This document shows positions 4,815 through 30,389 of a stretch of DNA of 42,688 nucleotides, piece after piece. The number at the start of each line of letters is the position of its first letter. Position 1 is the first letter of the stretch. Made by a program: the position numbers and the translations under genes. Source of the DNA: Patescibacteria group bacterium (GTDB taxonomy: Bacteria > Patescibacteriota > Minisyncoccia > Phycocordibacterales > VMEP01); assembly GCA_038063255.1 (NCBI GenBank), contig JBBTVL010000015.1, positions 1-42,688 on the forward strand, read 5' to 3'. Below the pieces are notes generated by a model, which saw only the letters and a program-made list of their open reading frames with translations, searched no databases and was not told where the DNA came from.

Positions 4815-4913
4815 CCCGTTAGAAATTCACCTTGATTTTAAATATAGATAAAAATAACCAAGTAATTGAAGTAATGAAAAACAAAAAATTTATTAGTTTT
4901 AATTTCTAATGGG
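4815..4913 (+). repeat. Start-codon-abutting leader hairpin (nusG copy)
   Basis: CCCGTTAGAAATT (4815-4827) pairs with AATTTCTAATGGG (4901-4913). The ATG follows at 4914. Confidence 0.65.
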
Positions 4914-5459
4914 ATGTCAAAGCAAGAAGTACAAGGAATGCGCAATTGGTACGCCATTCATACATATGCCGGTTATGAAAACGCGGTTATGCGCAATTTA
5001 AAACAGCGCATTGAATCGCTCGGCATGGAGGGAAAAATTTTCAATGTCATTGTGCCGATTGAAAAGAAAATAAAAATCAAAGGCGGCAAGCGCGTCGAAA
5101 TTGAAGAGAAAATTTATCCCGGTTATGTGCTGGTAGACATGGTGGTGGATGACGATTCGTGGTATGTGGTGAGAAATACCCCTAGAGTAACCGGTTTCGT
5201 CGGTGCCGGTGTCAATCCGGTGCCTTTGGAAAAAAACGAAGTTGACCTCCTTTTCGGACGGATGCGTTCGGACACCGTTAAGCACAACATTGACCTTGCG
5301 ATGGGTGAGTCGGTAATGGTGACCGACGGACCTTTCAAAGACCTTGAAGGAAAAGTGAATGAAGTAGACGATGAAAGAGGTAAAGTGAAAGTACTTGTTT
5401 CAATGTTCGGGCGCGAAACCCCTGTCGAATTAGATTTTTTGCAAGTGAAGAAAATCTAA
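4914..5459 (+). CDS. nusG: Transcription termination/antitermination factor NusG
   Basis: 181 aa with [17 protein letters not shown] start and a C-terminal KOW ([10 protein letters not shown]). Synteny secE-nusG-rplK. Confidence 0.9.
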
Positions 5460-5525
5460 TTCGACAAGTTATGTAAGGTAATAAGTTATAAAAGTTCAAT
5501 AAGGAATAAAAAAATAAAAAATAGA

Positions 5526-5897
5526 ATGGCAACGGGGCTTGAAAATCTAAAAATTTACCAGATGGCAGAGGAATTAGAGTTGATGCTTCATAAAGTCACT
5601 GGCAAATTTCCCAATAATGAAAGGTTTAGAAGTGTAGACCAGATTAAAATATCTTTGGCGGCAGTTGCAAATAATATATCGGAGGGGTACACTAGGCATT
5701 CATATAAGAAAAAAGTCAGGTATCTTTATATAGCTAAAGGAGAAGCTGAAGAGACAAAAAGAAATATTATACGGTCTTTCAAGAAAGGATTTCTTGAGAA
5801 AAAAATAGCAGAAGAAATAACTGATAAATATACAGAATTATTGAAGGCAATCAGTGGTTATATAAAATTTTTAAAATCAAAAGATATAAACTTATAA
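5526..5897 (+). CDS. Four-helix-bundle protein (23S rRNA intervening-sequence protein / Avd-like family)
   Basis: 123 aa. LKIYQMAEEL...FP..ERF...DQI..S..AVANNISEGY is the typical family signature. It is inserted between nusG and rplK. Confidence 0.75.
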   Translation: MATGLENLKIYQMAEELELMLHKVTGKFPNNERFRSVDQIKISLAAVANNISEGYTRHSYKKKVRYLYIAKGEAEETKRNIIRSFKKGFLEKKIAEEITDKYTELLKAISGYIKFLKSKDINL

Positions 5898-5932
5898 AAC
5901 TTCTTAAACTTATTTAACTTATAAAACTAATC

Positions 5933-6355
5933 ATGGCAAAGAGAATTACGAAGAAAATAAAACTCCAAGTGCCGGCAGGCCGTGCTACGCCCGCGCCACC
6001 ACTGGGTCCCGCGTTAGGCCAAGCCGGCGTCAATATAGGTGAATTTGTCACTAAATTTAATGCCGCCAGCAAAGATATGGCGGGGAATATTGTCTCGGTA
6101 AAGGTCCGGGTATATGAAGACAGGAGCTTTGATTTTGTGGTAAAAACTCCTCCAGTATCGGGGCTTATTTTAAAAGCGGCCGGCATAGAGAAAGGTTCCG
6201 GGAAAAACACAGCAACAAAGGTTGGCAAAATCAGTAAAGCTCAAGTGCGCGAAATCGCCGAAAAGAAAATGAAAGACCTCACCGCCAACGACATAGAAAG
6301 CGCGATGAAAATAATTGAAGGCAGTGCCCGGAGCATGGGGATAGAAGTCAAATAG
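5933..6355 (+). CDS. rplK: 50S ribosomal protein L11
   Basis: 140 aa with [26 protein letters not shown]. Confidence 0.95.
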
Positions 6356-6360
6356 TCGAT

Positions 6361-6457
6361 GGCTAAAACAATTTGCTCGGCAAATTGTTCGCCCGATTTT
6401 GCCTGTGGCAAAATTTAGGGGGATTAATGTGAAGTAAAAATAGCTAGCGCTATTTTT
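6361..6457 (+). repeat. Multi-hairpin repeat, copy A (GGCTAAA-hp1-CGCCCGA-hp2-TTTAGGG-hp3)
   Basis: hp1 is acaatttgc/gcaaattgt, hp2 is ttttgcc/ggcaaaa, hp3 is aaaaatagc/gctattttt. Related copies lie at 33917 and 41174-41258 (inverted). Confidence 0.6.
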
Positions 6458-6530
6458 ACGGAATCCCGCACTAATTTTGCTGTTTGTTGCAATAAAAAAC
6501 ACAATAACAACAAAATTCCATAAATATTTT

Positions 6531-6588
6531 GCGAAATGCGTGCGCGAATAGCGCAACCCTCGTCTCGGGCGAAGCATTTCGCTTTTTT
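6531..6588 (+). terminator. Branched hairpin plus T-run (probable terminator of the secE-nusG-rplK transcript)
   Basis: gcgaaatgc (6531-6539) pairs with gcatttcgc (6574-6582) and is followed by tttttt. Two small inner hairpins. Confidence 0.5.
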
Positions 6589-6683
6589 AGACAGACACAA
6601 AATTAGTGCTGGATGAAATAAACTAGTTTGTAGTTAGTAGTTTATAGTCAGTAGAAAATTAGAAACCTAAATAAAAAGAGATA

Positions 6684-12068: not shown

Positions 12069-12422
12069 ATGCAACAAACCATTAATCCGAATAATGTAAT
12101 CGTTTTCGGCTCCGCGTCTGTTGTCATCAACCTGCTGTTTCTCGCCCTTGCCGTCCGTGGCGAGCTGAAGGGTAAAACTCCCCAAGAGATACTCCAGCAA
12201 CAAACACCCCGCTGTGTTTCAGCTTTTCTGGGGTTGCTCGTCGCGTGCTATGCATACGCCTACGCCCCGCTCCTTTTTGCGATACACCCTCCGATTGCAA
12301 TTGAATTCGGCCGTTGGGTCATTGGGCTTGCGACTGGCGCAATCGTAACATGTAGTGCGCTCTACCTATTCCATCTTGGCGGTTACTTCAAGGAGTTACT
12401 AAGACGGTCTTTCCTCCGGTAG
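12069..12422 (+). CDS. Hypothetical small membrane protein (G+C-rich patch)
   Basis: AAGGAGG 5 nt upstream of ATG 12069. About 3-4 hydrophobic segments. A terminator-like hairpin follows. Confidence 0.5.
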   Translation: MQQTINPNNVIVFGSASVVINLLFLALAVRGELKGKTPQEILQQQTPRCVSAFLGLLVACYAYAYAPLLFAIHPPIAIEFGRWVIGLATGAIVTCSALYLFHLGGYFKELLRRSFLR

Positions 12423-12585
12423 AGCGATTCAAAGAATTTGCTGGACGGTGATTTTTTCGCAATATAGCGCTGTGCCCGATGTGGTACGGCGCTTTTTCCT
12501 TGTATTTCGAAAAATAGAGTGCTACACTCTCTTTCATCTGGAATGGGTCCAGATTTTTTATTTCCAAAAACAGTTCTTTCAGGGG

Positions 12586-13046: not shown

Positions 13047-13154
13047 AATTTACCCGCCTAAATTTGTGTAATTTTTAGTAGAGCGATTAGAAAAATTTTG
13101 TGTGGTAAACTCAATACATTACTCGATTTCTAGTAAAAATTTAGGTGGGTAAAT
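13047..13154 (+). repeat. Long imperfect hairpin element upstream of the ileS leader
   Basis: atttacccgcctaaattt (13047-13064) pairs with aaatttaggtgggtaaat (13137-13154), 17/18. Confidence 0.5.
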
Positions 13155-13163
13155 AGTATGAAT

Positions 13164-13286
13164 CCCGTTAGAAGCCGCGGTCACGGTTTAAATAGGAGCT
13201 TAAAACAATTATGAATCACGATCGTGTTATTATTTACAAAAATAACTTTGCAAGGCGCGGGCTGACCGCGACCTGCTTCTAACGGG
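13164..13286 (+). repeat. Start-codon-abutting leader hairpin (ileS copy)
   Basis: CCCGTTAGAAGC (13164-13175) pairs with GCTTCTAACGGG (13275-13286), with a second helix CGCGGTC/GACCGCG. ATG at 13287. Confidence 0.7.
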
Positions 13287-16200
13287 ATGAAACTAGAGGA
13301 AGAAATACTAAAATTTTGGCAAGAAAAGGGGATATTCAAAAAAACTTTAACTGAAAGGGCTTCCGGTAAAAAATTCGTATTTTACGACGGACCGCCCTTT
13401 GCTACCGGACTCCCTCATTACGGGCATATTTTGGCCGGAACTATCAAGGATGTCATTCCGCGCTATCAAACCATGCGCGGGCGATTTGTGCGCCGAGAGT
13501 GGGGCTGGGATTGTCATGGGCTTCCGCTTGAAAATATTATTGAAGAAGAACTAGGGCTCAAGCATAAGAAAGATATAGAAAAATTCGGCATTGAGAATTT
13601 TAATGATGCCGCCTCGCGCGCAGTACTTCGTTATGAAAATGACTGGAAAAAAATAATTCCTAAAACCGGGCGTTTCGTGGATATGGAGAATCCCTACAAA
13701 ACAATGGACGCCACATACACGGAATCCGTCTGGTGGTCCTTCAAAACTCTTTATGACAAAGGGCTGATATACGAAGGGCATAAAATAATGCTGGTGTGTC
13801 CGCGCTGTGAGACCACTCTTGCTCAGAGTGAAGTCGCTTTGGGCGGGTACCACGATGTTACTGATATTTCGGTGATAGTGAAATTTGAACTTATTGATGA
13901 GCCAGGAACATTTCTTTTGGCGTGGACGACGACACCGTGGACATTGCCTGGGAACACAGCCCTTGCGGTAAACAAGAATGTTGAATATGTAAAAGTCAGT
14001 ATCAAAAATTATCAGAATGTTCCTGATGGAATATATATATTTTCTAAAAAAGATTACGAAGATTATAAAAAAGAAATTGACAACGAAAAAAATAGAGAGA
14101 TAAAAACAAAGGTTGATATTTTAAAAACTTTCAAGGGAAGCGAACTTGTTGGTAAATCTTATATTCCTCCGTTTGATTATTTTTATAAAGATGAAAAAAT
14201 AAAAAATCACAAAAACGGATGGAAAGTTTATCATGCTGATTTTGTTACGACGGAAACCGGAACCGGAATCGCCCATGAGGCGCCGGCCTTCGGCGAAGAC
14301 GATATGCAACTCGCGCTCAAAAACAACATTCCCATTGTTCAGCATGTAGGAATGGATGGCAAAATGAAAAACGAAGTCAAAGATTTTCGCGGTTTATATG
14401 TAAAACAAAAGGGCGATACTCAGTCAACCGACATTGAAATTGTAAAATATCTCGCCCAAAAAGAACTTCTCTTTGCCAAAGAAAAAGTGGTGCACCCATA
14501 TCCTCTCTGCTGGCGCTGCGACACGCCGCTTTTAAACTATGCAACAAATTCATGGTTTGTTAAAGTAACGGATTTTAAGGACAAGCTGATAAGAGAAAAC
14601 AAAAAAATCGTCTGGGTGCCAGCGCACATGCGAGATGGCCGTTTCGGTAAATGGCTCGAAGCGGCCAAGGATTGGGCGATTTCGCGAACTCGTTTTTGGG
14701 GCGCACCCCTTCCGGTCTGGCGCTGTGAAAAATGTAAAAAAATTGAAATTATTGGAAGTTTAGGTGAACTTCAGAAATCAATACCTAAAAGCGGAAATAA
14801 ATATTTTGTTATGCGACATGGGCAAGCTGAGAGCAATATTTCTGGTACTAACGATTCCACAGGCAACCCGAATAATCATCTAACCGAGAATGGGCGAGAA
14901 AGTATACGGCGTTTTGCTAAAGAATTTTCTAAAAAAGGGATAACTCGTATTATGACTTCACCGTTCGCTCGTGCTAAGGAAAGCGCAGAAGTTATCGCAC
15001 ACGAACTTGGACTCCCGGAACAAAATATCTTGTCCGACCAACGATTGATTGAATTTAATCACGGCTCCGACCGTCAGGGTAAAAAAATAAGTAACAATAA
15101 TCCAGAACCATTTAATGAAAATGATCTTTATATTCGCCATGATGACGGTGAGAGCCACGCAGAGGTTAGATCACGGGTAGTTTCGGTGATATTTGATATG
15201 GAAAAAACCTATAAAAATGAGACGATACTTATTGTTACCCATGGTTCTCCAATGTGGATGCTTATCACCGGGGCTTTAGGTATGAGTGACAAGGAAACAA
15301 TAAAATATCAGGAAGAACGCAAAAAAGACAATGGGGACTATTTTATTTCAAACGGCCAGATTGAGAAAATTGACTTTGTCCCGTTTCCCCATAACAAAGA
15401 GTACGAACTTGATTTTCACCGCCCGTATATAGACGAAGTGAAGCTATCTTGCACTTGCGGTGGAGAGATGGAGCGCATCAAAGATGTCTTTGACTGCTGG
15501 TTTGAATCTGGCTCCATGCCCTACGGGCAATTTCATTATCCTTTTGAGAACAAAAAAGTTTTTAAAGAAAATTTTCCCGCCGATTTCATCGCCGAAGGAC
15601 TGGATCAAACCCGCGGATGGTTTTACAGCATGATGGTACTTGGCGTTGCGCTTTTCGGCGAGACGCCGTTTAAGAATGTTATCGTGAATGGCCTTATTTT
15701 GGGCGAAGACGGCCAGAAGATGGCCAAAAAACTTAAGAATTATCCGGATGTGACGGAGTTGATTGAAAAATACGGCGCTGATGCGCTCCGTTATTATTTT
15801 CTCTCGTTACCGGTAATGCGCGGAGAAGACATTGCTTTCTCGGAAAAGGGAATTAGTGATGTCTATAAGAAGATTATATTACGGCTCCTTAATGTCTATA
15901 GTTTCTACAAAATGTATGCCCATGAACTTCGTTTTGAGGACTCGTTCAAGAAGAGCAAAAATGTACTGGACCAATGGATATTGTCGCGCCTTTCAGAATT
16001 ATCTATAGAGATGACGCGCGGAATGGATGCTTACGAGCTTGATGTTGCTGTGCGCGGAATTGAAAAATTTGTTGACGATTTTTCCACCTGGTACTTGCGC
16101 CGCTCCAGAGAAAGAGTGAAGGGAGATGATAAAGAGGACAAAGAAATGTCACTTTCGACCATCCGTTTTGTCCTTTTTGAATTTTCCAAATTAATCGCTC

Positions 16201-16808
16201 CCGCAATGCCGTTTGTTGCGGAAGATATTTATCAGAAAGTGAAAGGATTAAAAGATAAAGAAAGCGTGCATCTTGAAGCTTGGCCCGAAGCGGGGAAGAT
16301 TGATAAAAAAAATATCGCCAAAATGGAAACAACCAGGTGTCTTGTTGAGCTTGCCCTCGCCCTTCGCGCGGAGAAAGGAATAAAAGTGCGTCAGCCACTT
16401 GCCATTTTGGAAGTAAGCAAAGAGGAAGGTGAATTTTTTGAAGAACTAATTAGAGACGAGGTTAATGTTAAAAAAATCTTTGTGGGAGCATTTTCCAAGG
16501 GGGCGGTGACACTGGACACAAATATTACACCCGAACTCAAGGAAGAAGGACAGTTTCGCGACCTAACGCGAGCAATCCAAGAATTGCGTAAAAAAGAAAA
16601 ACTTACGCATCATGATGTCGTTTCATTTGTAATTGATACCGATACAAGGGGGCGGGAATTAATTTCAAAATTTGAAGTACAATTAAAAAAGGCGGTATCG
16701 GCGGACAAAATTGTGTTTGAAAAAAATAACGGCGAAGAAATATTGATTAACGATACTATTTTAAAAGTTTCGCTAAAAAATCCCATTAGAAGTTCAGAAA
16801 AATTATAG
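13287..16808 (+). CDS. ileS: Isoleucine--tRNA ligase with an internal histidine-phosphatase-like insertion
   Basis: 1173 aa with PHYGH (HIGH), an editing-domain region, WAISRTRFWGAPLPVW, CxxC pairs, FHRPYIDEV and KMAKKLKN (KMSKS-like). Confidence 0.9.
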   Translation: MKLEEEILKFWQEKGIFKKTLTERASGKKFVFYDGPPFATGLPHYGHILAGTIKDVIPRYQTMRGRFVRREWGWDCHGLPLENIIEEELGLKHKKDIEKFGIENFNDAASRAVLRYENDWKKIIPKTGRFVDMENPYKTMDATYTESVWWSFKTLYDKGLIYEGHKIMLVCPRCETTLAQSEVALGGYHDVTDISVIVKFELIDEPGTFLLAWTTTPWTLPGNTALAVNKNVEYVKVSIKNYQNVPDGIYIFSKKDYEDYKKEIDNEKNREIKTKVDILKTFKGSELVGKSYIPPFDYFYKDEKIKNHKNGWKVYHADFVTTETGTGIAHEAPAFGEDDMQLALKNNIPIVQHVGMDGKMKNEVKDFRGLYVKQKGDTQSTDIEIVKYLAQKELLFAKEKVVHPYPLCWRCDTPLLNYATNSWFVKVTDFKDKLIRENKKIVWVPAHMRDGRFGKWLEAAKDWAISRTRFWGAPLPVWRCEKCKKIEIIGSLGELQKSIPKSGNKYFVMRHGQAESNISGTNDSTGNPNNHLTENGRESIRRFAKEFSKKGITRIMTSPFARAKESAEVIAHELGLPEQNILSDQRLIEFNHGSDRQGKKISNNNPEPFNENDLYIRHDDGESHAEVRSRVVSVIFDMEKTYKNETILIVTHGSPMWMLITGALGMSDKETIKYQEERKKDNGDYFISNGQIEKIDFVPFPHNKEYELDFHRPYIDEVKLSCTCGGEMERIKDVFDCWFESGSMPYGQFHYPFENKKVFKENFPADFIAEGLDQTRGWFYSMMVLGVALFGETPFKNVIVNGLILGEDGQKMAKKLKNYPDVTELIEKYGADALRYYFLSLPVMRGEDIAFSEKGISDVYKKIILRLLNVYSFYKMYAHELRFEDSFKKSKNVLDQWILSRLSELSIEMTRGMDAYELDVAVRGIEKFVDDFSTWYLRRSRERVKGDDKEDKEMSLSTIRFVLFEFSKLIAPAMPFVAEDIYQKVKGLKDKESVHLEAWPEAGKIDKKNIAKMETTRCLVELALALRAEKGIKVRQPLAILEVSKEEGEFFEELIRDEVNVKKIFVGAFSKGAVTLDTNITPELKEEGQFRDLTRAIQELRKKEKLTHHDVVSFVIDTDTRGRELISKFEVQLKKAVSADKIVFEKNNGEEILINDTILKVSLKNPIRSSEKL
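14799..15390 (+). other. Histidine-phosphatase (PGAM-superfamily) domain inserted in frame in IleRS (about residues 505-700)
   Basis: YFVMRHGQAESN (RHG), TSPFARAKESAEVIA (SPxxRAxxTA-like) and LIVTHGSPM (second His). It lies between ...CEKCKKIEIIGSLGEL and DFHRPYIDEV. Confidence 0.7.
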
Positions 16809-16861
16809 AGTATAATGACTTTTGTGAGAGAATTCGCCCGTGGCTTAATAAGTTTTAAAAT

Positions 16862-17458
16862 ATGATTATGCAAAAAACTTCTAACAGGACAAGAAAACGA
16901 GTATTCATAATCCATGGGTGGGAAGCTAGTTCTAGTTCAGACTGGTTCCCTTGGCTCAAGAAGGAATTAGAAAACCGGGGATTCGAAGTTACCGTTCCCG
17001 ATATGCCAGATACCGAGCGTCCTAATAAAGAGGTATGGATAACATATCTAGCTTCTCTCATCGGAGCACCAGACGAGCAGACTTATTTGGTAGGACATAG
17101 TATCGGGGGGAATACGGTATTGAGATATCTGGAATCATTGGATAATAAAAAGATCGGTGGGGCAGTACTTGTCGCTCCTTATTTCGGGAAAGTGGTGCTC
17201 GAATCTGGAGAAGCAAAAAAGATTGCGGACCCATGGCTCAATACGCCGATTGATTTTTCAAGAATCAAAAATGTTTGTAGTAATCTCACTTTTATTTTCT
17301 CGGATAACGATGAGTGGGTACCGCTTGAAAATAAAGAATTTTTCAAGGAGAAACTTTCCCCAAAGATTATTATTGAGAGAGGCAAAGGACATTTTAACGA
17401 AGAGGATGATATTGCTGAACTCCCTTCTGCGCTTGAAGCGTTACTTTCTTTTTCATAA
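16862..17458 (+). CDS. Alpha/beta serine hydrolase (YdeN/RBBP9-like)
   Basis: 198 aa with VFIIHGW, nucleophile elbow GHSIGG and a C-terminal GHF. Confidence 0.65.
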   Translation: MIMQKTSNRTRKRVFIIHGWEASSSSDWFPWLKKELENRGFEVTVPDMPDTERPNKEVWITYLASLIGAPDEQTYLVGHSIGGNTVLRYLESLDNKKIGGAVLVAPYFGKVVLESGEAKKIADPWLNTPIDFSRIKNVCSNLTFIFSDNDEWVPLENKEFFKEKLSPKIIIERGKGHFNEEDDIAELPSALEALLSFS

Positions 17459-18045: not shown

Positions 18046-18088
18046 TATTTAGTTTTTTTGACCACCTTGTTTCTAATCGTTCTATCCC

Positions 18089-18118
18089 CATTTACCCATT
18101 CGCACGAATGGGTAAATG
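18089..18118. promoter_or_regulatory. 30-bp palindrome CATTTACCCATTCG-ca-CGAATGGGTAAATG upstream of the ArsR-type gene
   Basis: Perfect 14-bp arms, no following T-run, about 34 bp before ATG 18152. Confidence 0.5.
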
Positions 18119-18421: not shown

Positions 18422-18442
18422 TTATATAATCCTAATTCAAGT

Positions 18443-18478
18443 CCCCATTTACCAATTCGTGCGAATGGGTAAATGGGG
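18443..18478. promoter_or_regulatory. Second copy of the CATTTACC(C/A)ATTCG palindrome, downstream of the ArsR-type gene
   Basis: ccccatttaccaattcg-tg-cgaatgggtaaatgggg with one arm mismatch and no T-run. Confidence 0.5.
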
Positions 18479-18558: not shown

Positions 18559-18820
18559 TGTTATAATTGGCAGCGAGAGAGAAATGTATAAGACTACTGC
18601 TTTATACATTTCAACCGAGCGAACCAATTTTATTGTACCCAGTTATATAATTGGCAGCGAGAGAGAAATGTATAAGACTACTGCTTTATACATTTCAACC
18701 GAGCGAACCAATTTTATTGTACCCAGTTATATAATTGGTAGTGAGTGAGAAATGGAAAGGGCTCCTGCCTTTTCTATTTCGAAAGAACGAACTAATTATA
18801 TTGTATTCCGTTATATAATA
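18559..18820 (+). repeat. Tandem 84-bp structured repeat: 3 units plus a partial 4th
   Basis: Units start at about 18559, 18643 and 18727. Units 1 and 2 are near identical. Unit 3 is diverged, but its inner hairpin is kept by compensatory changes. Confidence 0.85.
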
Positions 18821-18826
18821 AACCTC

Positions 18827-20737
18827 ATGGCTATAGAAGATAGGGAAAAAGATTCGATTGAAAAAATATCAGAACGCCTGTACCGCAACGACGGCGCGGT
18901 TACAAGGCATCGTCGCGGAGTGCTCCATAAGGGGCAGTACGATGTTTCGGATGATTGGCCCGAGGAAGAAAAGCTCCCTATGCGCCCTGTCGATCGGAAT
19001 TTGATGTTTAAAAAGATTTTTATAGGGTCGGCGATATTTTTCTTTCTCTCCATTATTTTTGCGCTTTATACTTTTTACGGCGGTTTCAATATAGTTTCCA
19101 ACGAAAATATCGGCTTGTCGGTGCTTGGTCCGGCCTTTACCGAAGGCGGCAGCGATCTTAACCTCCAATTTGAGATTAAGAACGGCAATCGACAGGCGCT
19201 AGAGTACGCTGACCTAATTATTGAGTATCCCAGAGGCGCCACTCTTTTTGGCGACAAGGACATAGTGCGCCTGACGAAGTCAATCGGCAATATCGGAGCG
19301 GGAAAATCGGCATCAGAAAGTATTAAAATTGTTGTCTTCGGCGATGAAGGCAGCGAACGTATTGTAAAAGCAACACTGGAATATCGGCTAGAGGGTTCAA
19401 ACGCTATTTTTCTGAAAGAAACGACTTTCCCCGTGCATGTCAAATCAAGCCCCATATCTATTTCAGTAAGCGATTTAAGAGAGGTAAACGCCAATCAAGA
19501 AATTTCGATTGATGTAGAAGTGCTGGCTAACTCCGACAAGATTTTGAGAAATATGTTGCTTCGCATCGAGTATCCCACCGGATTCACGCTTTCAGGCGTA
19601 ACTCCGGAGGCGACTTACAGCAACAATGTTTGGCGCTTGGGAGATCTTGATAAGTTGGCCAGGAAAAAAATAACTATTCGCGGCAAACTCGCCGGCGAGG
19701 ACGGAGAAGAGCGCTCCTTCCGAATATACTCGGGGCAGGAGGACGACAAAGACGGAGAAGTAATCGGCATAATTTACGGCTCGGTTTTAGAAACGCTTAC
19801 CATCAAGCGCCCTTTTATTGAGACAAAACTTTTGATAAACGGAGAGTCCGGCACGGAATTTGTAATTCCGGCTAGTGGGCGTATTAATGGAGAGCTTTCT
19901 TGGGTAAATAATTTACCCGACCGCGTGCTTGATGCTGAATTATTCGTCCACATTGAGGGCGATGCAATTGATAAGCAAACTGTTTCCGGCTTCCCCGGTT
20001 TTTTCAGTTCGCAGGACAACACCATTACATGGAATAAAGATACGGTGCCTAAGTTAGAGCAGATTCAGGGCGGAGACAGCGGCAATTTTAGTTTTTCATT
20101 CAATGTTTTGCCGGCATTTTCCGGTAATCGCCTTATTCTGAAAAACCCAAAGCTTACGCTTGAAGTCGGAGTGCGCGCCAGGCGGGTCAAAGAAGGGAAT
20201 GTGCCGGAAAGAATAACTTCTTCAGAAAAGAAGGTGATTAAAGTCAGCTCCAATGTGCAACTCTCGTCATTTGTCCGTTACTATGATGGTCCATTCAAAA
20301 ATAGCGGCGGAGTTCCCCCTAGGGCCGATAACGAAACTACTTATACTATCACTTGGACCGTATTGAACTCTTCCAACAATCTTTCTAATGCTTCGGTAAA
20401 AACCACCTTGCCAAACTATGTGCGCTTTCTGGGAAATGTTTTCCCAAACGGCGAAGAAGTTTCATTTGATGATAAATCTAGAGAAATAATTTGGAATATC
20501 GGATCCGTCGGAGAGGGGGTTGGTGTTGATAGCCCAATACGCCAATTATCGTTTCAAATAGGATTTACCGCTTCGCTTTCCCAAGTTGGTATCAGCGCCA
20601 CGGTTACAGGCGAATCTTCATTGACGGCCAAAGACACATTTACCAACGCCAATATCGCCGTTACAAAAAGTGCGCTTACCACAAGGATTTCAAGCGACAG
20701 CGGTATTAAAGCGGGGGATGATATAATCCAAAAATAG
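18827..20737 (+). CDS. Membrane-anchored beta-rich hypothetical protein (636 aa)
   Basis: I chose ATG 18827 because the ORF-track N-extension (18752-) lies inside repeat unit 3. One N-terminal TM (FIGSAIFFFLSIIFALYTFYGGF) is followed by repeated beta-sandwich-like segments. Confidence 0.65.
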   Translation: MAIEDREKDSIEKISERLYRNDGAVTRHRRGVLHKGQYDVSDDWPEEEKLPMRPVDRNLMFKKIFIGSAIFFFLSIIFALYTFYGGFNIVSNENIGLSVLGPAFTEGGSDLNLQFEIKNGNRQALEYADLIIEYPRGATLFGDKDIVRLTKSIGNIGAGKSASESIKIVVFGDEGSERIVKATLEYRLEGSNAIFLKETTFPVHVKSSPISISVSDLREVNANQEISIDVEVLANSDKILRNMLLRIEYPTGFTLSGVTPEATYSNNVWRLGDLDKLARKKITIRGKLAGEDGEERSFRIYSGQEDDKDGEVIGIIYGSVLETLTIKRPFIETKLLINGESGTEFVIPASGRINGELSWVNNLPDRVLDAELFVHIEGDAIDKQTVSGFPGFFSSQDNTITWNKDTVPKLEQIQGGDSGNFSFSFNVLPAFSGNRLILKNPKLTLEVGVRARRVKEGNVPERITSSEKKVIKVSSNVQLSSFVRYYDGPFKNSGGVPPRADNETTYTITWTVLNSSNNLSNASVKTTLPNYVRFLGNVFPNGEEVSFDDKSREIIWNIGSVGEGVGVDSPIRQLSFQIGFTASLSQVGISATVTGESSLTAKDTFTNANIAVTKSALTTRISSDSGIKAGDDIIQK

Positions 20738-20825: not shown

Positions 20826-20915
20826 ATGGATAAAATAGTGTCGCTTGCTAAACGGCGCGGGTTTTTGTATCAGAGTTCGGAAATTTACGGCGGGCTCGCC
20901 CTGCCAAATTTCTAG
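20826..20915 (+). pseudogene. Truncated remnant of a glycyl-tRNA synthetase 5' end
   Basis: It translates to MDKIVSLAKRRGFLYQSSEIYGGLALPNF*, against the GlyRS N-terminus MTDLEKIVSLCKRRGFIYSSSEIYGGLAGAWDY that starts 13 nt downstream. Confidence 0.7.
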
Positions 20916-20927: not shown

Positions 20928-22286
20928 ATGACCGATTTAGAAAAAATTGTAAGTTTATGTAAACGTCGAGGTTTTATATATTCCAGCTCTGAAATTTATG
21001 GAGGGCTCGCCGGCGCTTGGGATTACGGCCCGTACGGCCTGGCACTCAAGCAAAATATAAAAAATCTCTGGTGGAAGCGCTTTGTCGATAGCAAGGATGA
21101 AATGTACGGCATGGATGCTTCCATTTTAATGAACCCGCGAGTTTGGCAGGCCTCCGGGCATATTTCCGGGTTTTCAGACCCATTATCGGATTGTGAAGAC
21201 TGTAAAAAACGGTTTCGTACCGATGCTCTTGAAAAAAGAGTTTGCCCGGAATGCGGAGGCAAGTTGGGCGCCTCGCGCCAATTCAATATGATGTTTGAAA
21301 CGAAAATCGGGGCAATGGAAGATTCGTCGGCAACAGTTTATCTCCGTCCCGAGACAGCGCAGGGAATGTTCGTCAATTTCAAAAATATCGTCGATAGTTT
21401 TCATCCTAAAATTCCATTCGGCATAGCCCAGATAGGCAAGGCATTCCGCAACGAAATAACTCCGCGCGATTTTATTTTTCGTACGCGCGAGTTTGAGCAG
21501 ATGGAAATTGAATATTTTGTAAAAGAATCCGAATGGAAAGATTCATTTGAGTATTGGCGCAAAGAAATGCTTGGGTGGATGAGCGACATCGGCCTTTCTA
21601 AAAAAAGTATTCATGAACTTGAAGTTCCGGATGACGAACGCGCGCACTATTCAAAAAGAACTATTGATTTTGAATTCGATTATCCGTTCGGCAGAAAGGA
21701 GTTATATGGTTTGGCATACAGAACAGATTTTGATCTATCTGCGCACTCAAGCGAGAGTACTGTCGATTTATCCTACTATGACGAAGAAACAAAAGAGCGA
21801 TTTATCCCAAATGTAATTGAGCCGTCATTCGGCGTAGATCGCACTGTGCTCGCCGTACTACTTTCTGCTTATACCGAAGACGAACTTGGCGGGGCTAAAC
21901 CGGATCATGATAATCCGGTCGCCCGAACTGCCAAAGGCGGTTCTAGGGAGAAGCGAGTCTATTTGAAATTAAAGCCCTCGCTTGCGCCGGTGAAAGTTGC
22001 CGTGTTTCCGCTTCTTAAAAATAAGCCAGAACTTATGGAGAAAGCGCGTGAAGTTTATGCGATGCTTAAAAAAGAAATTCCGCAAATTGCATTTGATGAT
22101 AACGGCAATATCGGCAAGCGCTATCGGCGCCAAGACGAAATCGGCACGCCCTTTTGCGTTACTATTGATTTTGAAACACTGGATAATGACACGGTTACCA
22201 TCAGATATCGTGACGATGGACGACAAGAGCGATCTAAAATTTCTGAAATTTCTTCATTTATCACGGAGAAATTGAAGACAAACTAA
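20928..22286 (+). CDS. glyQS: Glycine--tRNA ligase (homodimeric class II)
   Basis: 452 aa with RRGFIYSSSEIYGGLAGAWDYGPYG, YLRPETAQG, FRNEITPR and an anticodon-binding C-terminus. Confidence 0.9.
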   Translation: MTDLEKIVSLCKRRGFIYSSSEIYGGLAGAWDYGPYGLALKQNIKNLWWKRFVDSKDEMYGMDASILMNPRVWQASGHISGFSDPLSDCEDCKKRFRTDALEKRVCPECGGKLGASRQFNMMFETKIGAMEDSSATVYLRPETAQGMFVNFKNIVDSFHPKIPFGIAQIGKAFRNEITPRDFIFRTREFEQMEIEYFVKESEWKDSFEYWRKEMLGWMSDIGLSKKSIHELEVPDDERAHYSKRTIDFEFDYPFGRKELYGLAYRTDFDLSAHSSESTVDLSYYDEETKERFIPNVIEPSFGVDRTVLAVLLSAYTEDELGGAKPDHDNPVARTAKGGSREKRVYLKLKPSLAPVKVAVFPLLKNKPELMEKAREVYAMLKKEIPQIAFDDNGNIGKRYRRQDEIGTPFCVTIDFETLDNDTVTIRYRDDGRQERSKISEISSFITEKLKTN

Positions 22287-25828: not shown

Positions 25829-26638
25829 ATGAAAATAAATTATATAGACATACATTCCCACATCCACGACAAAGAATTTGATAAAGACCGTGATGAGGTT
25901 TTGGCGAGAATGAAGGAAAGTAATATAGCCACGATTACAATAGGAACACATCTTGAAAGTTCAAGAAAAGCCGTCGCGCTTGCTGAAAAAGAATCTCTAG
26001 TTTATGCAACAGTTGGAATTCACCCAACTGACACAAAAGTTGAAATAGTTTCCAAAGAACTTGAAGAATTGGCTCATCACAAAAAAGTTGTGGCGATAGG
26101 CGAGTGCGGGTTAGATTATTTTCGCGGGAGTACATCAGAAGTCGAGAAAAAACGCCAACGTGCGCTTTTTGAATCGCAAATTGAACTAGCGATTAAAGTT
26201 GATAAGCCACTAATGATTCATGGCAGGCCTTCCCGCGGCAGCATGGACGCCTATTTGGATATTTTAGAAATTCTTACCCCGTACAAATTGGAACACGGGG
26301 AACATTTAAGGGGAAACATTCATTTTTTCTCAGGAAATAAAGAAATTGCCCAAAAATTTCTGGATTTGGGGTTCACGATGTCGTTTACGGGAGTGGTAAC
26401 ATTTACCCACGATTACAATGACGTTATTCGTTTTCTTCCTCTTACTTCAATTATGTCCGAAACGGATTCGCCCTATGTGGCGCCCGTACCTTATCGCGAC
26501 AAGCGCAACGAACCGTTATTTATACGTGAGACGGCCGCCCAAATAGCCAGAATTAGAGGAGAAAACGAGAATATGGTGGCGGAAGCGCTCTTCAAAAATG
26601 CAATAGATAGCTTCGGATTACATGACCTTTTTGACTAA
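25829..26638 (+). CDS. tatD: TatD-family metal-dependent hydrolase
   Basis: 269 aa with IDIHSHI (HxH), GECGLDY, HGR and SETDSPY. Confidence 0.85.
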   Translation: MKINYIDIHSHIHDKEFDKDRDEVLARMKESNIATITIGTHLESSRKAVALAEKESLVYATVGIHPTDTKVEIVSKELEELAHHKKVVAIGECGLDYFRGSTSEVEKKRQRALFESQIELAIKVDKPLMIHGRPSRGSMDAYLDILEILTPYKLEHGEHLRGNIHFFSGNKEIAQKFLDLGFTMSFTGVVTFTHDYNDVIRFLPLTSIMSETDSPYVAPVPYRDKRNEPLFIRETAAQIARIRGENENMVAEALFKNAIDSFGLHDLFD

Positions 26639-26676
26639 TATACCCTCCTCTGATAGCATGGGGGAATTCAGAACTT

Positions 26677-26789
26677 ACTTGTCCTGTTAGAAGTTTAAGA
26701 TTAAGGTTAAAATACCGTGGGTGAAGCCGTAAGGCGCTACGCTAACAAAAATTCATTAAAAGAAATAATTAATACGAACTTCTAATAGG
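26677..26789 (+). repeat. Start-codon-abutting leader hairpin (rpsF copy), inverted duplicate of 28624-28736
   Basis: CCTGTTAGAAGTT (26683-26695) pairs with AACTTCTAATAGG (26777-26789). ATG at 26790. 110/113 identical to the efp copy. Confidence 0.8.
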
Positions 26790-27260
26790 ATGGTAAAAAA
26801 CGCTCCCGCAGTTGAAGTAAAAGAAGAGGGGAAGAGAATCTACGAAGTGGGCTATCTTCTAACGGCTTCTTTGTCCGAAGAAAAACTTTTCCAACTGGTG
26901 GAAGACTTGAAGGGCGCCATTGTAAAAGACGGAGGCGCCATCATCACCCTAGAATTTCCTAAACTCCGCGATCTTGCTTACCCGATGTCTAAAATGATAG
27001 GCCACAAAAAAGAAATTTTCGGGAGCGCCTATTTTGGTTCTATTAAGTTTGAACTTGAAGCGGAAAATATTTCAAATATTAAAAAATATTTTGAATCGCT
27101 GGAGTCTGTGGTAAGATTTCTCCTAATTACTACTGTTCGCGAGAATACCATGTATTCGCGCCGCGTAGCATTCCGCCCGAATGATCGCCCCCGCGCCAAA
27201 AAAGGAGCGAAGATGAGCGAAGAAGAAATGGAGAAAACGGTCGCCGAATTAGTTAAATAA
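26790..27260 (+). CDS. rpsF: 30S ribosomal protein S6 (with C-terminal extension)
   Basis: 156 aa with a YEVGYLL start and LAYPM. Synteny rpsF-ssb-rpsR. Confidence 0.8.
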   Translation: MVKNAPAVEVKEEGKRIYEVGYLLTASLSEEKLFQLVEDLKGAIVKDGGAIITLEFPKLRDLAYPMSKMIGHKKEIFGSAYFGSIKFELEAENISNIKKYFESLESVVRFLLITTVRENTMYSRRVAFRPNDRPRAKKGAKMSEEEMEKTVAELVK

Positions 27261-27265
27261 AAATT

Positions 27266-27706
27266 ATGTATTTAAACAAAGCACTAATTGTAGGAAATCT
27301 TACCCGCGACCCGGAGATGAAATCTCTTCCTTCGGGTTCGAAAGTAACGACATTTTCTTTGGCGACGAACCGTGTCTGGAAAAATGCTTCAGGCGAGAAA
27401 CAAGAGTCGGTTGATTATCACAATATCGTAGTTTTCGGGCGTCAGGCCGAAACTTCGGCACAATATTTGAAGAAAGGGCAGTCTGTTCTCATTGAAGGGC
27501 GCATCCAGACGAGAAGCTGGGATGATAAGGGTACGGGTGAAAAGAAGTATCGTACTGAAATTGTCGCCGACAGAGTACAGTTTGGGCCAAAAAGCGGAAT
27601 GGGTGGTGGCACTAGTGCTAGTGCTCCTAAACAAGAAACGCCAGAGGCAGAAGGTGGAATCGAGTACCCAACAGAAGAGGCAAATCCGGAAGATATACCC
27701 TTCTAG
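27266..27706 (+). CDS. ssb: Single-stranded DNA-binding protein
   Basis: 146 aa with NKALIVGNLTRDPE, an OB fold, a Gly-rich linker and the acidic tail ...EDIPF. Confidence 0.9.
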   Translation: MYLNKALIVGNLTRDPEMKSLPSGSKVTTFSLATNRVWKNASGEKQESVDYHNIVVFGRQAETSAQYLKKGQSVLIEGRIQTRSWDDKGTGEKKYRTEIVADRVQFGPKSGMGGGTSASAPKQETPEAEGGIEYPTEEANPEDIPF

Positions 27707-27824
27707 CGAAGGCGATACCAATATACAAATGAATACTAATATACGAATGACTACAAATAAGGGTTTAAAATATTAGTATCCATTAGTATAATTCGTAACA
27801 TTAGTAGATTAGTATGTTTATCTT

Positions 27825-28028
27825 ATGAAAAAACAGTGCTATTTCTCGCAAAATAATATTAAGTATATTGATTATAAGGATATTGAAATTCTGAAGAAAT
27901 TTTTGACGCCCCACGCGCGTCTCCAGTCCAGGAAACGTTCCGGCGTTTCTTCAAAAAGTCAGCACCAATTGGCACTCGCCGTCAAGCGCGCCCGATTTTT
28001 AGGACTCTTACCCTATGTCTCCCGTTAA
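27825..28028 (+). CDS. rpsR: 30S ribosomal protein S18
   Basis: 67 aa with IDYKD...LKKFLT....L.SR.SG.S.K.Q..LA.AVKRAR.LGLLPY. Confidence 0.9.
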   Translation: MKKQCYFSQNNIKYIDYKDIEILKKFLTPHARLQSRKRSGVSSKSQHQLALAVKRARFLGLLPYVSR

Positions 28029-28035
28029 CTAAAGA

Positions 28036-28623
28036 CTACTTTTTTTCCACACGCTCCACATATTCTCCAGTTTCAGTATTTACGCGGATTACATCGTCAA
28101 CATTAACAAAGAAGGGGACTGTTACAGTTGCTCCGGTTTCAAGCACTGCCGTTTTTCCCCCACCTGAAGCGGTATTTCCTTTTATAGAGGGCGGTGCGTC
28201 GGTAACCTTAAGTTCAACTTTAATAGGCAAACGAATGCCAATAATTTTCGGTTCCTCATCGTCATCTTCTGAAAAAGTAAGCACTTCCACTAAAATATTG
28301 CCTTTTAGAAATTTTTTTGGTTCGCCTAACAGTTTTTCGTCTATTTTAAACCGCTTGCTCGGATCTTTTTCCTCGCAAAACCAATATTCTCCTTTATTGT
28401 GATACAAAAATTTAACAGTTCTTTTTCCTAAATCGGCTTCTTCTACTTTGTCCGTGGCATGAAATGTCGCCGGCACGATTCTGCCGTTCAAAAGACTCCT
28501 TAATTTAGTTTGGTTTTGCGGTTTGCGCATCTGTGTCCGTGCCACATGTGAATCAATCACCTCATAGGGCTCTTTATTGTAGATAATATATTTTCCAGGA
28601 CGTATTTCGCTGTATTCAAGCAT
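28036..28623 (-). CDS. efp: Elongation factor P (non-canonical beta3-beta4 loop)
   Basis: 195 aa. EPYEVIDSHV....TKLRSLLNG and three-domain length support the call. The PGKG loop is replaced by RTQMRKP. Confidence 0.85.
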   Translation of the reverse strand: MLEYSEIRPGKYIIYNKEPYEVIDSHVARTQMRKPQNQTKLRSLLNGRIVPATFHATDKVEEADLGKRTVKFLYHNKGEYWFCEEKDPSKRFKIDEKLLGEPKKFLKGNILVEVLTFSEDDDEEPKIIGIRLPIKVELKVTDAPPSIKGNTASGGGKTAVLETGATVTVPFFVNVDDVIRVNTETGEYVERVEKK

Positions 28624-28736
28624 CCTATTAGAAGTTCGTATTAATTATTTCTTTTAATGAATTTTTGTTAGCGTAGCGCCTCTCGGCTTCACTCACGGTA
28701 TTTTAACCTTAATCTTAAACTTCTAACAGGACAAGT
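28624..28736 (-). repeat. Start-codon-abutting leader hairpin (efp copy)
   Basis: Reverse complement of this span equals the rpsF leader apart from 3 substitutions. The arm ends at position -1 of the efp ATG (28623). Confidence 0.8.
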
Positions 28737-28781
28737 GGATACCGGCTTATTGTAAGGATTTTTTTAAAAATGTCTATAACT

Positions 28782-28814
28782 CCCCCACTTGGCGGTTAAA
28801 CCGCCAAGTGGGGG
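28782..28814. repeat. CACTTGG-family hairpin (14-bp perfect stem) between recA 3' end and the efp leader
   Basis: cccccacttggcgg-ttaaa-ccgccaagtggggg. Confidence 0.7.
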
Positions 28815-28851
28815 GGTGAGAAAAGATATAATCAACAATAGGGCGGATTTT

Positions 28852-29871
28852 TTACTTCGGTTCTTCGGATAGTTTTTTTCTAATGTCTTTTTCTATAGTA
28901 TTTGCTACTTTCGGATTCTCTCTCAAAAATGTTCTAGTGGCGTCATATCCGCGCCCGAGTTTGGTGTCGCCATATTCATAACTCTGCCCTCCTTTTTTAA
29001 TTATTCCGAACTTTTCCCCGAGAGCGATAAGTTCACCCTCTTTGGAAATGCCTTCGCCGTATATAATATCGAATTCAGTGCTTTTAAATGGCGCGGCTAC
29101 TTTATTTTTCACTACTTTCACCCGCGTGCGCGAGCCGACGGTCTCCTCTCCTTTTTTAATCGAGGCAATTTTCCTGATATCAATGCGTACTGATGTATAA
29201 AACTTGAGTGCTTTCCCGCCCGGCGTGGTCTCTGGATTGCCGAACATTACCCCGATTTGCATTCTGATTTGATTGATGAAAATAACCACGGTTTTTGATT
29301 TGGCGGTGATGGCGGTCAATTTGCGGAGCGCTTGAGACATCAATCGCGCCTGCTTGCCGACATGGTACGCCCCCATATCGCCCTCGATTTCGTCTTTAGG
29401 CGTCAAGGCCGCCACCGAGTCAATAACAACGACATCAATTTTTCCCGAACGCACCAAGCTTTCCACAATTTGAAGCGCTTGTTCACCGGTGTCCGGCTGG
29501 GAGATAAGCAGGTCGTTTATTTTTAGCCCTAATTTTTTTGCGTATTCCGGGTCCATAGCGTGTTCAGCGTCAACGAAAGCGCATATTCCGCCGGCTTTCT
29601 GCGCCTCGGCAATGATATGGAGAGTGAGCGTAGTTTTGCCTGAAGATTCTGGGCCGAAAACTTCAATGATTCTGCCGCGCGGAATCCCGCCCGCTCCTAG
29701 AGCGTAGTCAAGACCGATCGAACCGCTGGAGATAACTCCCACACTGCTCACTTTCGGTTTATCGCCCAACTTCATAATGGCTCCCTCGCCGAATTTCGTT
29801 TCTATTTCGCGAATCGTGTCTTCTATTGAAGCGCCTATTTCCTTATCTTCTTTTTTTATTTTTTTAATCAT
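28852..29871 (-). CDS. recA: Recombinase RecA
   Basis: 339 aa with GPESSGKTT (Walker A) and FINQIR. Preceded by ATAACGGG directly before the ATG. Confidence 0.95.
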
Positions 29872-29913
29872 CCCGTTATTTTTTTTATTTTTAATTTTTC
29901 AACTTTTATTTTT

Positions 29914-30270
29914 TTACTGCCGTTCTTTGCGTACGATTTCTAATTCAACTTTTTTTGTTTTTCCAAAACGATCTGTCCCCGCCACACTTATTATATTATA
30001 ACCTTCCGTCACTACCAATTGATCCTTAAATACTCCATTTTGGTCGATTGAAATCGTCCGGCCGTTGATGGAAATTTTGGAGATATTTTTCGTTATGCCT
30101 TCTATGGGTAAAGTTGAGCTTAGAACTACTGCTCCACTGCGCGGAGTCTGCACGGTTATTTTTGGTCCCATGATAAGGTTTTTAGTTTTATCAAACGCGT
30201 AGAGCACGATTATAAGCGCAAGCGCGATACCTAGGGATAATTTAAGCGCGCGCCGCGGATCTTTGTTCAT
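29914..30270 (-). CDS. Small membrane-anchored protein with a beta-rich ectodomain (118 aa)
   Basis: I chose ATG at 30270 (MNKDPRR...) because the leader hairpin ends at position -1. The ORF-track extension to 30309 lies in the hairpin arm. Confidence 0.55.
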   Translation of the reverse strand: MNKDPRRALKLSLGIALALIIVLYAFDKTKNLIMGPKITVQTPRSGAVVLSSTLPIEGITKNISKISINGRTISIDQNGVFKDQLVVTEGYNIISVAGTDRFGKTKKVELEIVRKERQ

Positions 30271-30389
30271 CCCGTTAGAGGCAGGTCGCGTTCGTAACGC
30301 CCTGCGCAAAATTATTATTAAAAATTTGGATTATTTCTATCATATTACATTAATTATGCGAAATTTACTCGACCGCGGCCTCTAACGGG
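30271..30389 (-). repeat. Start-codon-abutting leader hairpin (copy downstream of ftsK)
   Basis: On the minus strand, CCCGTTAGAGGCCGCGGTC ... CGCGACCTGCCTCTAACGGG-ATG. It fills the whole gap from 2 nt after the ftsK stop to the ATG. Confidence 0.7.

Follow-up and report, generated by a model that had tools for sequence, protein, structure and literature searches.

Hairpin elements flush with start codons in Patescibacteria: a probably non-autonomous mobile family that rebuilds the ATG at its insertion sites

Elements before nusG, ileS, rpsF, efp and other genes

Our analysis of 42,688 nucleotides (nt) of DNA from a Patescibacteria group bacterium (assembly GCA_038063255.1, contig JBBTVL010000015.1, forward strand; "the window", whose numbering is used here) centres on a family of hairpin-forming elements that lie immediately before the start codons of nusG, ileS, rpsF, efp and the gene downstream of ftsK. 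These five copies were described in an original prediction made from the letters of the window; all are present, with an ATG directly after each 3' arm (table 1). The arms are also as described there, except that each had been drawn one base short: in an alignment of the window copies the outermost stem pair is formed by an invariant T before CC and an invariant A after GG. The core of the window copies is T-CC(C/T)GTTAGA...TCTAA(C/T)(G/A)GG-A, and the pairing of the stem ends with the A of the ATG. A sixth copy, found by a 9-mer search, holds both the ileS stop (16806-16808) and the start of a hydrolase gene (ATG 16862); the element now provides the stop of ileS plus an in-element ATG that lengthens the hydrolase by about 10 residues. 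A covariance model built from 68 family members and run on the window yields exactly these six copies and no others (33.6 bits for copy 1, 99 for copy 2 and 96 for copy 5). The stretch at 41279-41290 (CCCGTTAGG), upstream of rplJ, was considered as a further member and rejected, as it has neither a partner arm nor a covariance model match.

Table 1. Copies of the element in the window
Feature	Extent	Strand	CC..GG boundaries	Location	5' flank	Further positions
Copy 1	4814..4914	+	4815-4913	before nusG	ACTTG 4809-4813 ("type 2" form)	arms 4814-4826 and 4902-4914; terminal A 4914 is the A of the nusG ATG (4914-4916)
Copy 2	13158..13289	+	13164-13286	before ileS	ATGAA 13158-13162, duplication-flanked ("type 1" form)	element 13163-13287; regenerated ATG 13287-13289; Shine-Dalgarno-like AGGTGGG 13143-13149
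Copy 3	26682..26790	+	26683-26789	before rpsF	ACTTG	terminal A is the A of the rpsF ATG (26790)
Copy 4	28623..28731	-	28624-28730	before efp	ACTTG
Copy 5	30268..30395	-	30271-30389	before Glucodextran_B-domain gene downstream of ftsK	ATGAA 30395-30391, duplication-flanked	element 30390-30270; regenerated ATG 30270-30268; upstream ATGAA includes ftsK stop TGA 30394-30392
Copy 6	16781..16889	-		spans ileS/hydrolase gene junction; missed by the original prediction	CTTG	ATT follows instead of ATG
recA remnant	29872..29879	-		flush with recA ATG		3' arm only (ATAACGGG)

By their 5' flanks the window copies form two groups, one with (A)CTTG (nusG, rpsF, efp and copy 6) and one with ATGAA (ileS and the gene downstream of ftsK). 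The two members of the latter share a second helix, as had been proposed, and they carry ATGAA on both sides of the element; the 5' flank ATGAAT that had been read as part of the element is instead the duplicated start codon of the target gene. Similarly, the statement that these genes have no Shine-Dalgarno (SD) sequence is true for the ATG next to the hairpin, but the ileS copy and the copy downstream of ftsK have AGGTGGG and GGAGGG, respectively, 8-9 nt upstream of the duplicated 5'-side ATG. Over 125 nt the copies at rpsF and efp share 94% identity; we therefore consider them recent duplicates and count them as one event.

Fold and covariation

Every window copy folds as a long hairpin, with minimum free energies of -20.8 (nusG) to -50.3 kcal/mol (ileS) and z scores against shuffles of -2.3 to -5.9 (the latter again ileS). 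The compensatory changes noted between window copies (C:G to T:A at arm position 3 and A:T to G:C at position 10) are there, and copy 6 has a T:G intermediate at position 3. Our fold statistics come from an alignment of 68 copies of the major subfamily. In this alignment the outer helix, P1, is 14 bp long and 99% paired (the terminal inverted repeats are 13-14 bp); its outer 10 bp (TCCCGTTAGA/TCTAACGGGA) are invariant in sequence, and the three inner pairs alternate, A:U with G:C or C:G with U:A, each of them showing 27-31 double changes. The start-codon A is paired in 68 of the 68 copies, and the U in 65, its partner being the base before the element (A or G). All six pairs of the second helix, P2 (GCGGTC/GACCGC and variants), covary; P1 and P2 are parted by an asymmetric loop whose 3' side reads NNCTR, and another subfamily has a local hairpin beside the 3' arm in place of P2.

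The pairing beats all shuffled and slid controls in the percentage of paired cells, in cells changed on both sides and in covariation score, although there is no excess over these controls in the count of pairs changed on both sides or of further pair types. Pairing above the controls indicates that the fold is under selection, and the claim first made on the window copies is thus borne out by the inner pairs of P1 and all of the pairs of P2. This covariation fits a fold that acts as RNA or as single-stranded DNA alike. The balance of G:U and A:C mismatches (9 versus 4 in the aligned set) was considered as a means of telling the two apart and was set aside, as these are too few and the copies are not independent. 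Since the structure is asymmetric its orientation relative to the gene can be scored; 68 copies are forward and 6 are flipped.

Target site and duplication

Insertion of the element occurs at A|TG-R-R and duplicates 3-5 nt, usually TGAA. Because the last base of the element is A, the adjoining duplicated TG recreates an ATG flush with the 3' arm, and the original ATG stays on the 5' side. A direct repeat of this kind (TG plus 1-3 nt, with an A before it) flanks 95 of 144 copies in a scan of genomes and 84 of 118 in a scan of metagenomes (both scans are described below). In the 95 genome copies the repeat is ATGNN, where NN are the two bases that follow the downstream ATG (AA 52 times, GA 17 and AG 16), and 75 of the metagenome copies have 4 nt duplicated after the A, 7 have 3 nt and 2 have 5 nt. 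The duplicated sequence differs from site to site, and empty sites have a single copy of it. Several metagenome copies that are not followed by ATG are flanked by ATAAA...TAAA, one mismatch off the usual target. In the reconstructed target, specificity is confined to A-T-G-R-R: at position 4 A accounts for 76% and G for 19%, and at position 5 A for 82% and G for 17%. A wider target context beyond these bases was looked for and none was found, and SD-like motifs precede only 19 of 150 upstream ATGs.

Almost every occupied site is a true start codon, and essential genes are among those occupied. The EF-P homologues are of equal length and are covered in full from the ATG next to the hairpin, so this ATG is the real N-terminus. 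Unoccupied ATGRR sequences in the same loci are found at 377 starts of long open reading frames (ORFs), at 1326 places in non-ORF space and at 5444 places inside ORFs; about 96% of the ATG-type copies occupy starts, versus about 22% predicted from sequence targeting with loss of lethal insertions.

A minority class, about 2-6% of the total, is flanked by ACTTG and lacks a target duplication. It includes the nusG, rpsF and efp copies of the window, copies at recA and efp of a relative (locus L121, below), members in several other genomes, and 3 of 130 metagenome copies. The 3' arm in this class usually has a G:T wobble. As the rpsF and efp copies show, ACTTG is carried along with the element. 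Its TTG and the 5'-arm TAG share a frame, giving TTG-TCC-CGT-TAG (in the nusG copy TTG 4811-4813 and TAG 4820-4822), and one might speculate that translation of this three-codon mini-ORF could unwind the stem. CTTG targeting of the IS91 type was considered as the origin of ACTTG and rejected, as it conflicts with the majority of copies, in which the ATG is duplicated, and ACTTG moves with the element.

The window also has two families of GC-rich palindromes of the form CACTTGG...CCAAGTG (2321-2349, 38294-38322 and 38407-38435; 28784-28822, 38345-38383 and 39469-39507). They lie at gene ends and are terminator-like; they share ACTTG with the type 2 flank, which may be a coincidence.

Mobility

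Syntenic loci of relatives were fetched from other genomes via their EF-P homologues, and are named here L121 (EF-P 90% identical to that of the window), L124 (84%), and L126 and L127 (73%). The density of copies differs among them: the window has 6 in 42.7 kb, L121 has 7 in 20.6 kb, and L124, L126 and L127 have none. Orthologous sites that are filled in one genome and empty in another occur at the junction of ftsK and its downstream gene, at the ftsK start, and at recA, metG, rpsF and efp. At the first of these L124 has the empty site ccATGAcgg, and the filled sites read ATGAA[element]ATGAAC in the window and ATGAG[element]ATGACT in L121. The ftsK start is empty in the window (taaattATGGCT) and filled in L121 (taaattATGG[192-nt element]ATGGCT), and metG is likewise empty in the window and filled in L121. 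The junction of ileS and the hydrolase gene, which holds copy 6 in the window, is a simple overlapping ATGA in L124. The efp site is empty in L124 and L126, and has elements at the same position in the window, L121 and L025 (whose EF-P is 66% identical). At recA, L124 is empty, L121 has a full ACTTG-flanked element, and the window keeps only TAACGGG; the "3' half" that had been reported at the window recA gene is real, and the full element at the exact site in the 90%-related L121 identifies it as a decayed remnant of such an element.

Tandem copies parted only by the 4-nt repeat are found at single start codons in three loci (L095, L016 and L099). In addition, there are four young pairs whose interiors are 96-98% identical, and all eight members abut an ATG; six are at the starts of long ORFs, a seventh is the upstream partner in a tandem at a start codon, and the last is followed by an ORF of 27 codons. 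Insertions are thus present or absent between close relatives, and the family is mobile. Among the readings offered by the original prediction, that of an element like a MITE (short for miniature inverted-repeat transposable element) with a start-proximal target is supported by the target duplications, the empty sites, the tandem and decayed copies, and the hundreds of copies before unrelated genes.

Copies are not always flush with a start: in L121, 47 nt separate the rpsF ATG from an upstream copy (12418-12539) that has a mutated 5' arm (CCCCGATTAGA) and precedes a -10-like TAGTAT. At 192 nt, the L121 copy at the start of ftsK (5788-5991) is above the usual length.

Family size, hosts and length

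Scans for the two-arm pattern gave at least 120 loci in a species-representative (one genome per species) collection and at least 120 in metagenomes. By our own estimate about 17 matches are expected by chance in random sequence, so the pattern is far beyond chance, and many copies exist beyond the window. The counts given here and above are among the matches listed in these scans. More than 270 copies are found in Patescibacteria genomes and metagenomes. In the genome scan the carriers are almost all Patescibacteria metagenome-assembled genomes (Saccharibacteria, Paceibacterota/Parcubacteria, and Kaiser-, Nomura-, Wolfe-, Jorgensen-, Levyi- and Kerfeld-bacteria), and a few carrier bins bear the labels Omnitrophota, Elusimicrobia or Planctomycetia. 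An ATG follows 132 of its 144 copies, and 123 of these ATGs open an ORF of at least 60 codons. Because the genome-scan pattern demanded AT on one flank, the metagenomes were scanned with the flanks unconstrained; there the terminal A makes an ATG in 118 of 130 copies (about 12% would be expected by chance), with a long ORF in 113. Phages were considered as a vector and rejected, as just two viral contigs have matches.

The length of the elements is narrowly distributed. Among 314 arm-to-arm spans shorter than 200 nt, 272 fall in the range 100-149 nt, with 36 at 50-99 nt and 6 at 150-199 nt. The ORFs inside the elements are not conserved and have at most about 42 codons.

Short open reading frames and translation

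The ends of the element carry stop codons, a TAG in GTTAGA of the 5' arm and a TAA in TCTAAC of the 3' arm, and the latter lies 4 nt before the ATG of the gene; in a second frame the common gene start ATGA gives a TGA that overlaps the ATG. The arrangement is that of coupled cistrons, with a stop just before or overlapping the start and no SD sequence between the stem and the ATG. We asked how often short ORFs run through the hairpin in 233 non-identical copies, with expectations taken from shuffles of the interiors. When the upstream ATG is in the frame of the arm TAA, its ORF is open through the hairpin to that stop in 45 of 83 copies (12% expected, p ~1e-20), and when it is in the frame of the overlapping TGA it is open to the TGA in 21 of 60 (11.5% expected). 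On the other hand, only 3 of 44 upstream-ATG ORFs are fused in frame to the gene, and the gene's own frame through the element is open less often than expected. ORFs of at least 10 codons that begin at any ATG and end at the arm TAA are found in 48% of copies (13% in shuffles), and those of at least 20 codons in 39% (7%). The only residues common to the peptides, M-x-P-V-R, are encoded by the arm.

Read from frames and stop positions, this pattern seems to be the signature of termination-reinitiation coupling. In copy 2 the short ORF from the upstream ATG (13158), read directly from the sequence, stops at TGA 13212-13214. This TGA overlaps an internal ATG (13211), and the second short ORF opened there runs to the arm TAA (13280-13282), which lies 4 nt before the ileS ATG. 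In copy 5 the upstream ATG opens a short ORF that ends at TAA 30356-30354.

Three other roles for the 3' end of the element found no place. An outward promoter in the 3' arm was rejected as TCTAAC lacks the key A2 and T6 of a -10 box; an SD-like role for the GGGA beside the ATG was rejected as its spacing to the ATG is zero; and intrinsic terminators have a T-run, where here the 3' arm is followed by ATG-R-R with no such run.

The preferred reading and the points against it

We think it likely that these elements are a non-autonomous, foldback, MITE-like family of Patescibacteria that targets start codons, regenerates the ATG, and is tolerated through termination and reinitiation across the hairpin. 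The element would be co-transcribed with its gene, and its stem would sequester the A and U of the regenerated ATG. Ribosomes would load on the original upstream ATG, on an internal one or on the TTG of the ACTTG form, using the native initiation signals of the gene; translation of the short, non-conserved ORF would melt the hairpin, and the ribosomes would end at the stop of the 3' arm (the UAA 4 nt before the AUG, or the UGA that overlaps it as AUGA) and reinitiate on the gene, with in-frame read-through into the gene presumably selected against. The occlusion of the start codon suggested by the original prediction is thus true structurally, but it is probably overcome by translation of the upstream short ORF. 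An insertion that largely neutralises itself in this way could be tolerated before nusG, ileS, rpsF, efp, recA and ftsK.

Several observations weigh against this explanation. About half of the copies do not have a long short ORF that ends at the arm stop, and the ACTTG-flanked copies (including those of nusG, rpsF and efp) have no upstream ATG. A stem that begins 6 nt after the upstream ATG should hinder bacterial initiation there. No autonomous parent was found: in about 1.7 Mb of fetched flanking loci no arm pair spaced 250-6000 nt encloses a gene and there is no element longer than about 300 nt between such arms, and none of the 20 window proteins has a transposase, integrase or reverse-transcriptase domain; it follows that the family is non-autonomous or mobilised in trans. 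The arms are also better conserved than might be expected. Between the window and L121 the third codon positions of efp are 48% identical and the element interiors about 50-60%, with many gaps, yet all 27 arm and flank bases compared at efp are identical; judged from these comparisons, such conservation amid saturated interiors and synonymous sites looks unlike a neutral MITE and would not be required by reinitiation. Finally, the precision with which start codons are occupied is beyond what sequence targeting alone explains. It could be due to mechanistic recognition or to strong differential persistence, and the few young copies favour mechanistic recognition of start codons over persistence.

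It is conceivable, if doubtful, that the occupancy of starts is mechanistic, the element or a factor that reads its stem recognising functional starts, or else that the stem is needed in place for a mode of gene expression specific to the candidate phyla radiation (CPR). Candidates for the latter are enzyme-mediated excision or cleavage of the hairpin from the mRNA and transfer of ribosomes across the hairpin.

Alternative explanations

The first of these candidates is also the rival that survives best, although we consider it unlikely: a sequence-specific endonuclease that reads the invariant stem would remove or process the element at the RNA level, either excising the hairpin, as an intron is removed, with religation between the two duplicated ATGNN so that the original mRNA is restored, or cutting the stem base and leaving a leaderless mRNA. 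Across phyla the outer 10 bp do not vary, and they are identical in orthologous copies with saturated interiors and synonymous sites, which suggests recognition in place; the direct repeats would permit scarless excision, the 68:6 orientation bias points the same way, and most host genes lack an SD sequence (the 19 of 150 above), as fits translation that is friendly to leaderless mRNAs. However, frame-specific selection on short ORFs that run through the element implies that, in many copies, the element is in the mRNA that is translated. In addition, no ribozyme or other Rfam match and no candidate enzyme were found, and the interior is not conserved. Processing to a leaderless mRNA, another suggestion of the original prediction, accordingly found no support, and the frame-specific conservation of the short ORFs weighs weakly against it.

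A translational shunt or bypass, in which the hairpin is looped out and the initiation complex or its signals pass from the upstream to the downstream ATG, is less probable still. T4 gene 60 and the "byps" of Magnusiomyces mitochondria are inserts inside coding sequence that the elongating ribosome skips, and T4 gene 38 has a split ribosome-binding site. Like the bypass elements, ours are mobile stem-loop inserts between identical codons that are tolerated in essential genes; the identical ATGNN on either side of the stem base would serve as matched "take-off" and "landing" sites, the stem is closed as far as the ATG, and the length is tightly held at about 100-125 nt. Unlike them, our elements are inserted at codon 1, where a nascent-peptide signal is impossible, and there is no stop after the upstream ATG codon pair, the "take-off" site of a gene 60-type bypass. 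A shunt does not predict short ORFs that are kept open far above chance; these and the stops next to the ATG point to reinitiation. Moreover, the ACTTG copies have no upstream ATG for it to use, and in some other copies this ATG has decayed (ATAGA, ATCAA).

It is very improbable that the element is a site for a tyrosine recombinase, an attC-like or Xer/dif-like hairpin whose "duplication" is a shared crossover core. The covariation shows that the hairpin matters, joined ends would give two inverted arms around a 4-6 nt spacer, and the arm motifs GTTAGAR/YTCTAAC come near the integron core sites GTTRRRY/RYYYAAC (PMC8876359). The boxes are, however, in the opposite order, with GTTAGAR on the 5' side and YTCTAAC on the 3' side where attC has RYYYAAC 5' and GTTRRRY 3'; the targets have no arms, the duplication varies in length from 3 to 5 nt, and the elements occupy the 5' ends of syntenic housekeeping genes, neither forming arrays nor lying at 3' cassette ends. 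The reversed box order and the different genomic context show that this is not an attC site. A vertically inherited regulatory leader RNA (protein-binding, thermosensor or riboswitch-like) controlling translation of housekeeping genes, to which the conserved, covarying hairpin that sequesters the start codon and the translation-related genes behind the window copies (nusG, ileS, rpsF and efp) might point, can hardly be entertained, as it is already contradicted by the empty sites of close relatives, by the target duplications, tandem copies and decay, by interiors that are unrelated, by one and the same interior being present in both orientations, and by copies before unrelated genes across many phyla, with no Rfam match.

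Relationship to known elements

The comparison with Rfam that had been proposed brought no known family: Rfam 15, searched with the whole window, gave 0 matches at the gathering score. At E values up to 10 nothing overlaps the ileS copy, and in the region 26600-30450 there are only chance-level matches, of which the sole one to overlap an element is a 13-bit antisense match to speF. A literature search (arm sequence, MITE, start codon, Patescibacteria, leaderless) found no earlier description, work in subscription journals being possible.

The family shows what defines a MITE, namely inverted repeats at its ends, a duplicated target site, small size without transposase coding, multiple copies per genome and insertion polymorphism; a cognate autonomous insertion sequence was not found in the fetched loci or the window. 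The classic bacterial MITEs are the Correia elements (CREE/NEMIS) of Neisseria, which duplicate TA and occupy variable intergenic positions. Our elements resemble them in being about 100-150 nt long, in having hairpin-forming terminal repeats, many copies and strain polymorphism, and in having no transposase of their own; like them, too, they are next to genes, and the Correia elements are co-transcribed with these genes and affect their expression. They differ from the Correia elements in the target A|TGRR at true starts, in the terminal A that rebuilds the ATG, in their unrelated arms, and in their presence in many Patescibacteria lineages as opposed to one genus.

The Rickettsia palindromic elements (RPE) insert in frame and are translated within the host protein. 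They too are small, palindromic mobile repeats that are tolerated in the genes of reduced genomes since insertion is compatible with expression, but in our family in-frame fusion is avoided (see above) and the insert stays outside the protein. REP/BIME sequences with their RAYT, and the palindromes derived from IS200/IS605 (PATEs), have no target duplication and are extragenic or lie 3' of a fixed tetranucleotide. As in these, the structure of the inner stem matters here (as the covariation shows) and there is no transposase inside, so that a single trans-acting enzyme is plausible; the variable duplication of 3-5 nt and the perfect terminal inverted repeat at both ends set our elements apart. 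Thus, the family appears distinct from the Correia, RPE, REP and bypass elements in its start-codon target, its ATG-rebuilding terminal base and the apparent stop-restart arrangement of its ends.

By analogy, the closest experimentally studied parallel appears to be the short ORFs of integrons. ORF-11, ORF-17 and ORFs inside attC, all in attI/attC sites, relieve the attC stem-loops by termination-reinitiation, and the stop of ORF-11 lies in the recombination core site GTTRRRY (PMC8876359). In both systems an mRNA hairpin of a mobile element would block ribosomes and an otherwise unconstrained short ORF reads through it; the stop comes from a conserved terminal sequence (TAG in GTTRRRY of the integron, TAG/TAA in GTTAGA/TCTAAC here), and the downstream gene has no SD sequence of its own and is translated by coupling, which in our case is suggested by comparative statistics. 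Our elements do not belong to integron cassettes, have the inverted box order and target duplications, and lie at start codons of chromosomal housekeeping genes.

Other features of the window

Several other features of the window may be mentioned. Runs of ATAAGTTnn (and its complement) with a 9-nt period are present at 4437-4545, 4735-4779, 5466-5514, 5857-5933 and 41894-41992; they flank nusG, a 23S_rRNA_IVP gene and rplK, recur between rplJ and rplL, and enclose the nusG-IVP block in inverted repeats that are long (72 nt) but imperfect. The gene in question (5526-5897), between nusG and rplK, encodes a 23S rRNA-intervening-sequence protein (PF05635, a four-helix bundle) and, bracketed by ATAAGTT runs, it looks like a small cassette inserted into an otherwise conserved operon. 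Upstream of rplJ, 41100-41400 is a long, structured-looking region with several GC-rich local hairpins, as expected of an L10 leader, and has no Rfam match at the gathering score.

An 84-nt unit is present in three head-to-tail copies at 18562-18813, two of them identical and the third 75% identical and overlapping the start of the gene for a 661-amino-acid DUF11-domain protein (18752-20737). In L121 an RVT_1 reverse-transcriptase gene adjoins the orthologue of this large protein, and the RVT_1 gene near the L121 locus is not adjacent to any element. A 33-34-nt palindrome (TCCCCATTTACCCATTCGCACGAATGGGTAAATG) is found on either side of an 89-amino-acid gene (18152-18421), at 18085-18118 and 18442-18478; as direct repeats the two share 91% identity, and as inverted repeats they are 97% complementary. 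The 52 nt at 20849-20900 are repeated at 20960-21011 with 77% identity, the first upstream of, and the second within the first 30 codons of, a tRNA-synthetase gene at 20928 (PF00587/PF03129 in its orthologue), and this may be a duplicated 5' end of that gene. Finally, two 410-codon ORFs overlap on opposite strands (2399-3631, plus strand; 2921-4153, minus strand), the plus-strand one having no Pfam match.

Implications

If our preferred explanation is correct, one selfish element sits at the first codon of a large share of the genes in some Patescibacteria, essential genes included; its occupancy in the source genome and in L121 is roughly one gene in six to one in three. It can colonise first codons because its ends cancel the damage, with an A that rebuilds the ATG and stops that are placed for reinitiation. 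It would then be a natural system in which to study initiation and coupling across strong structure in SD-poor bacteria with reduced genomes, and a polymorphic marker for the strain-level population genetics of uncultured lineages. It would also be a warning for gene calling in CPR genomes, in which starts may be set wrongly, short ORFs called within elements, and N-terminal extensions added (as in the hydrolase at 16862). Should the occupancy of starts prove to be mechanistic, or the stem to be needed in place, the family would represent a new class of "start-codon parasite", linked with an initiation or RNA-processing activity of the Patescibacteria that is as yet undescribed.

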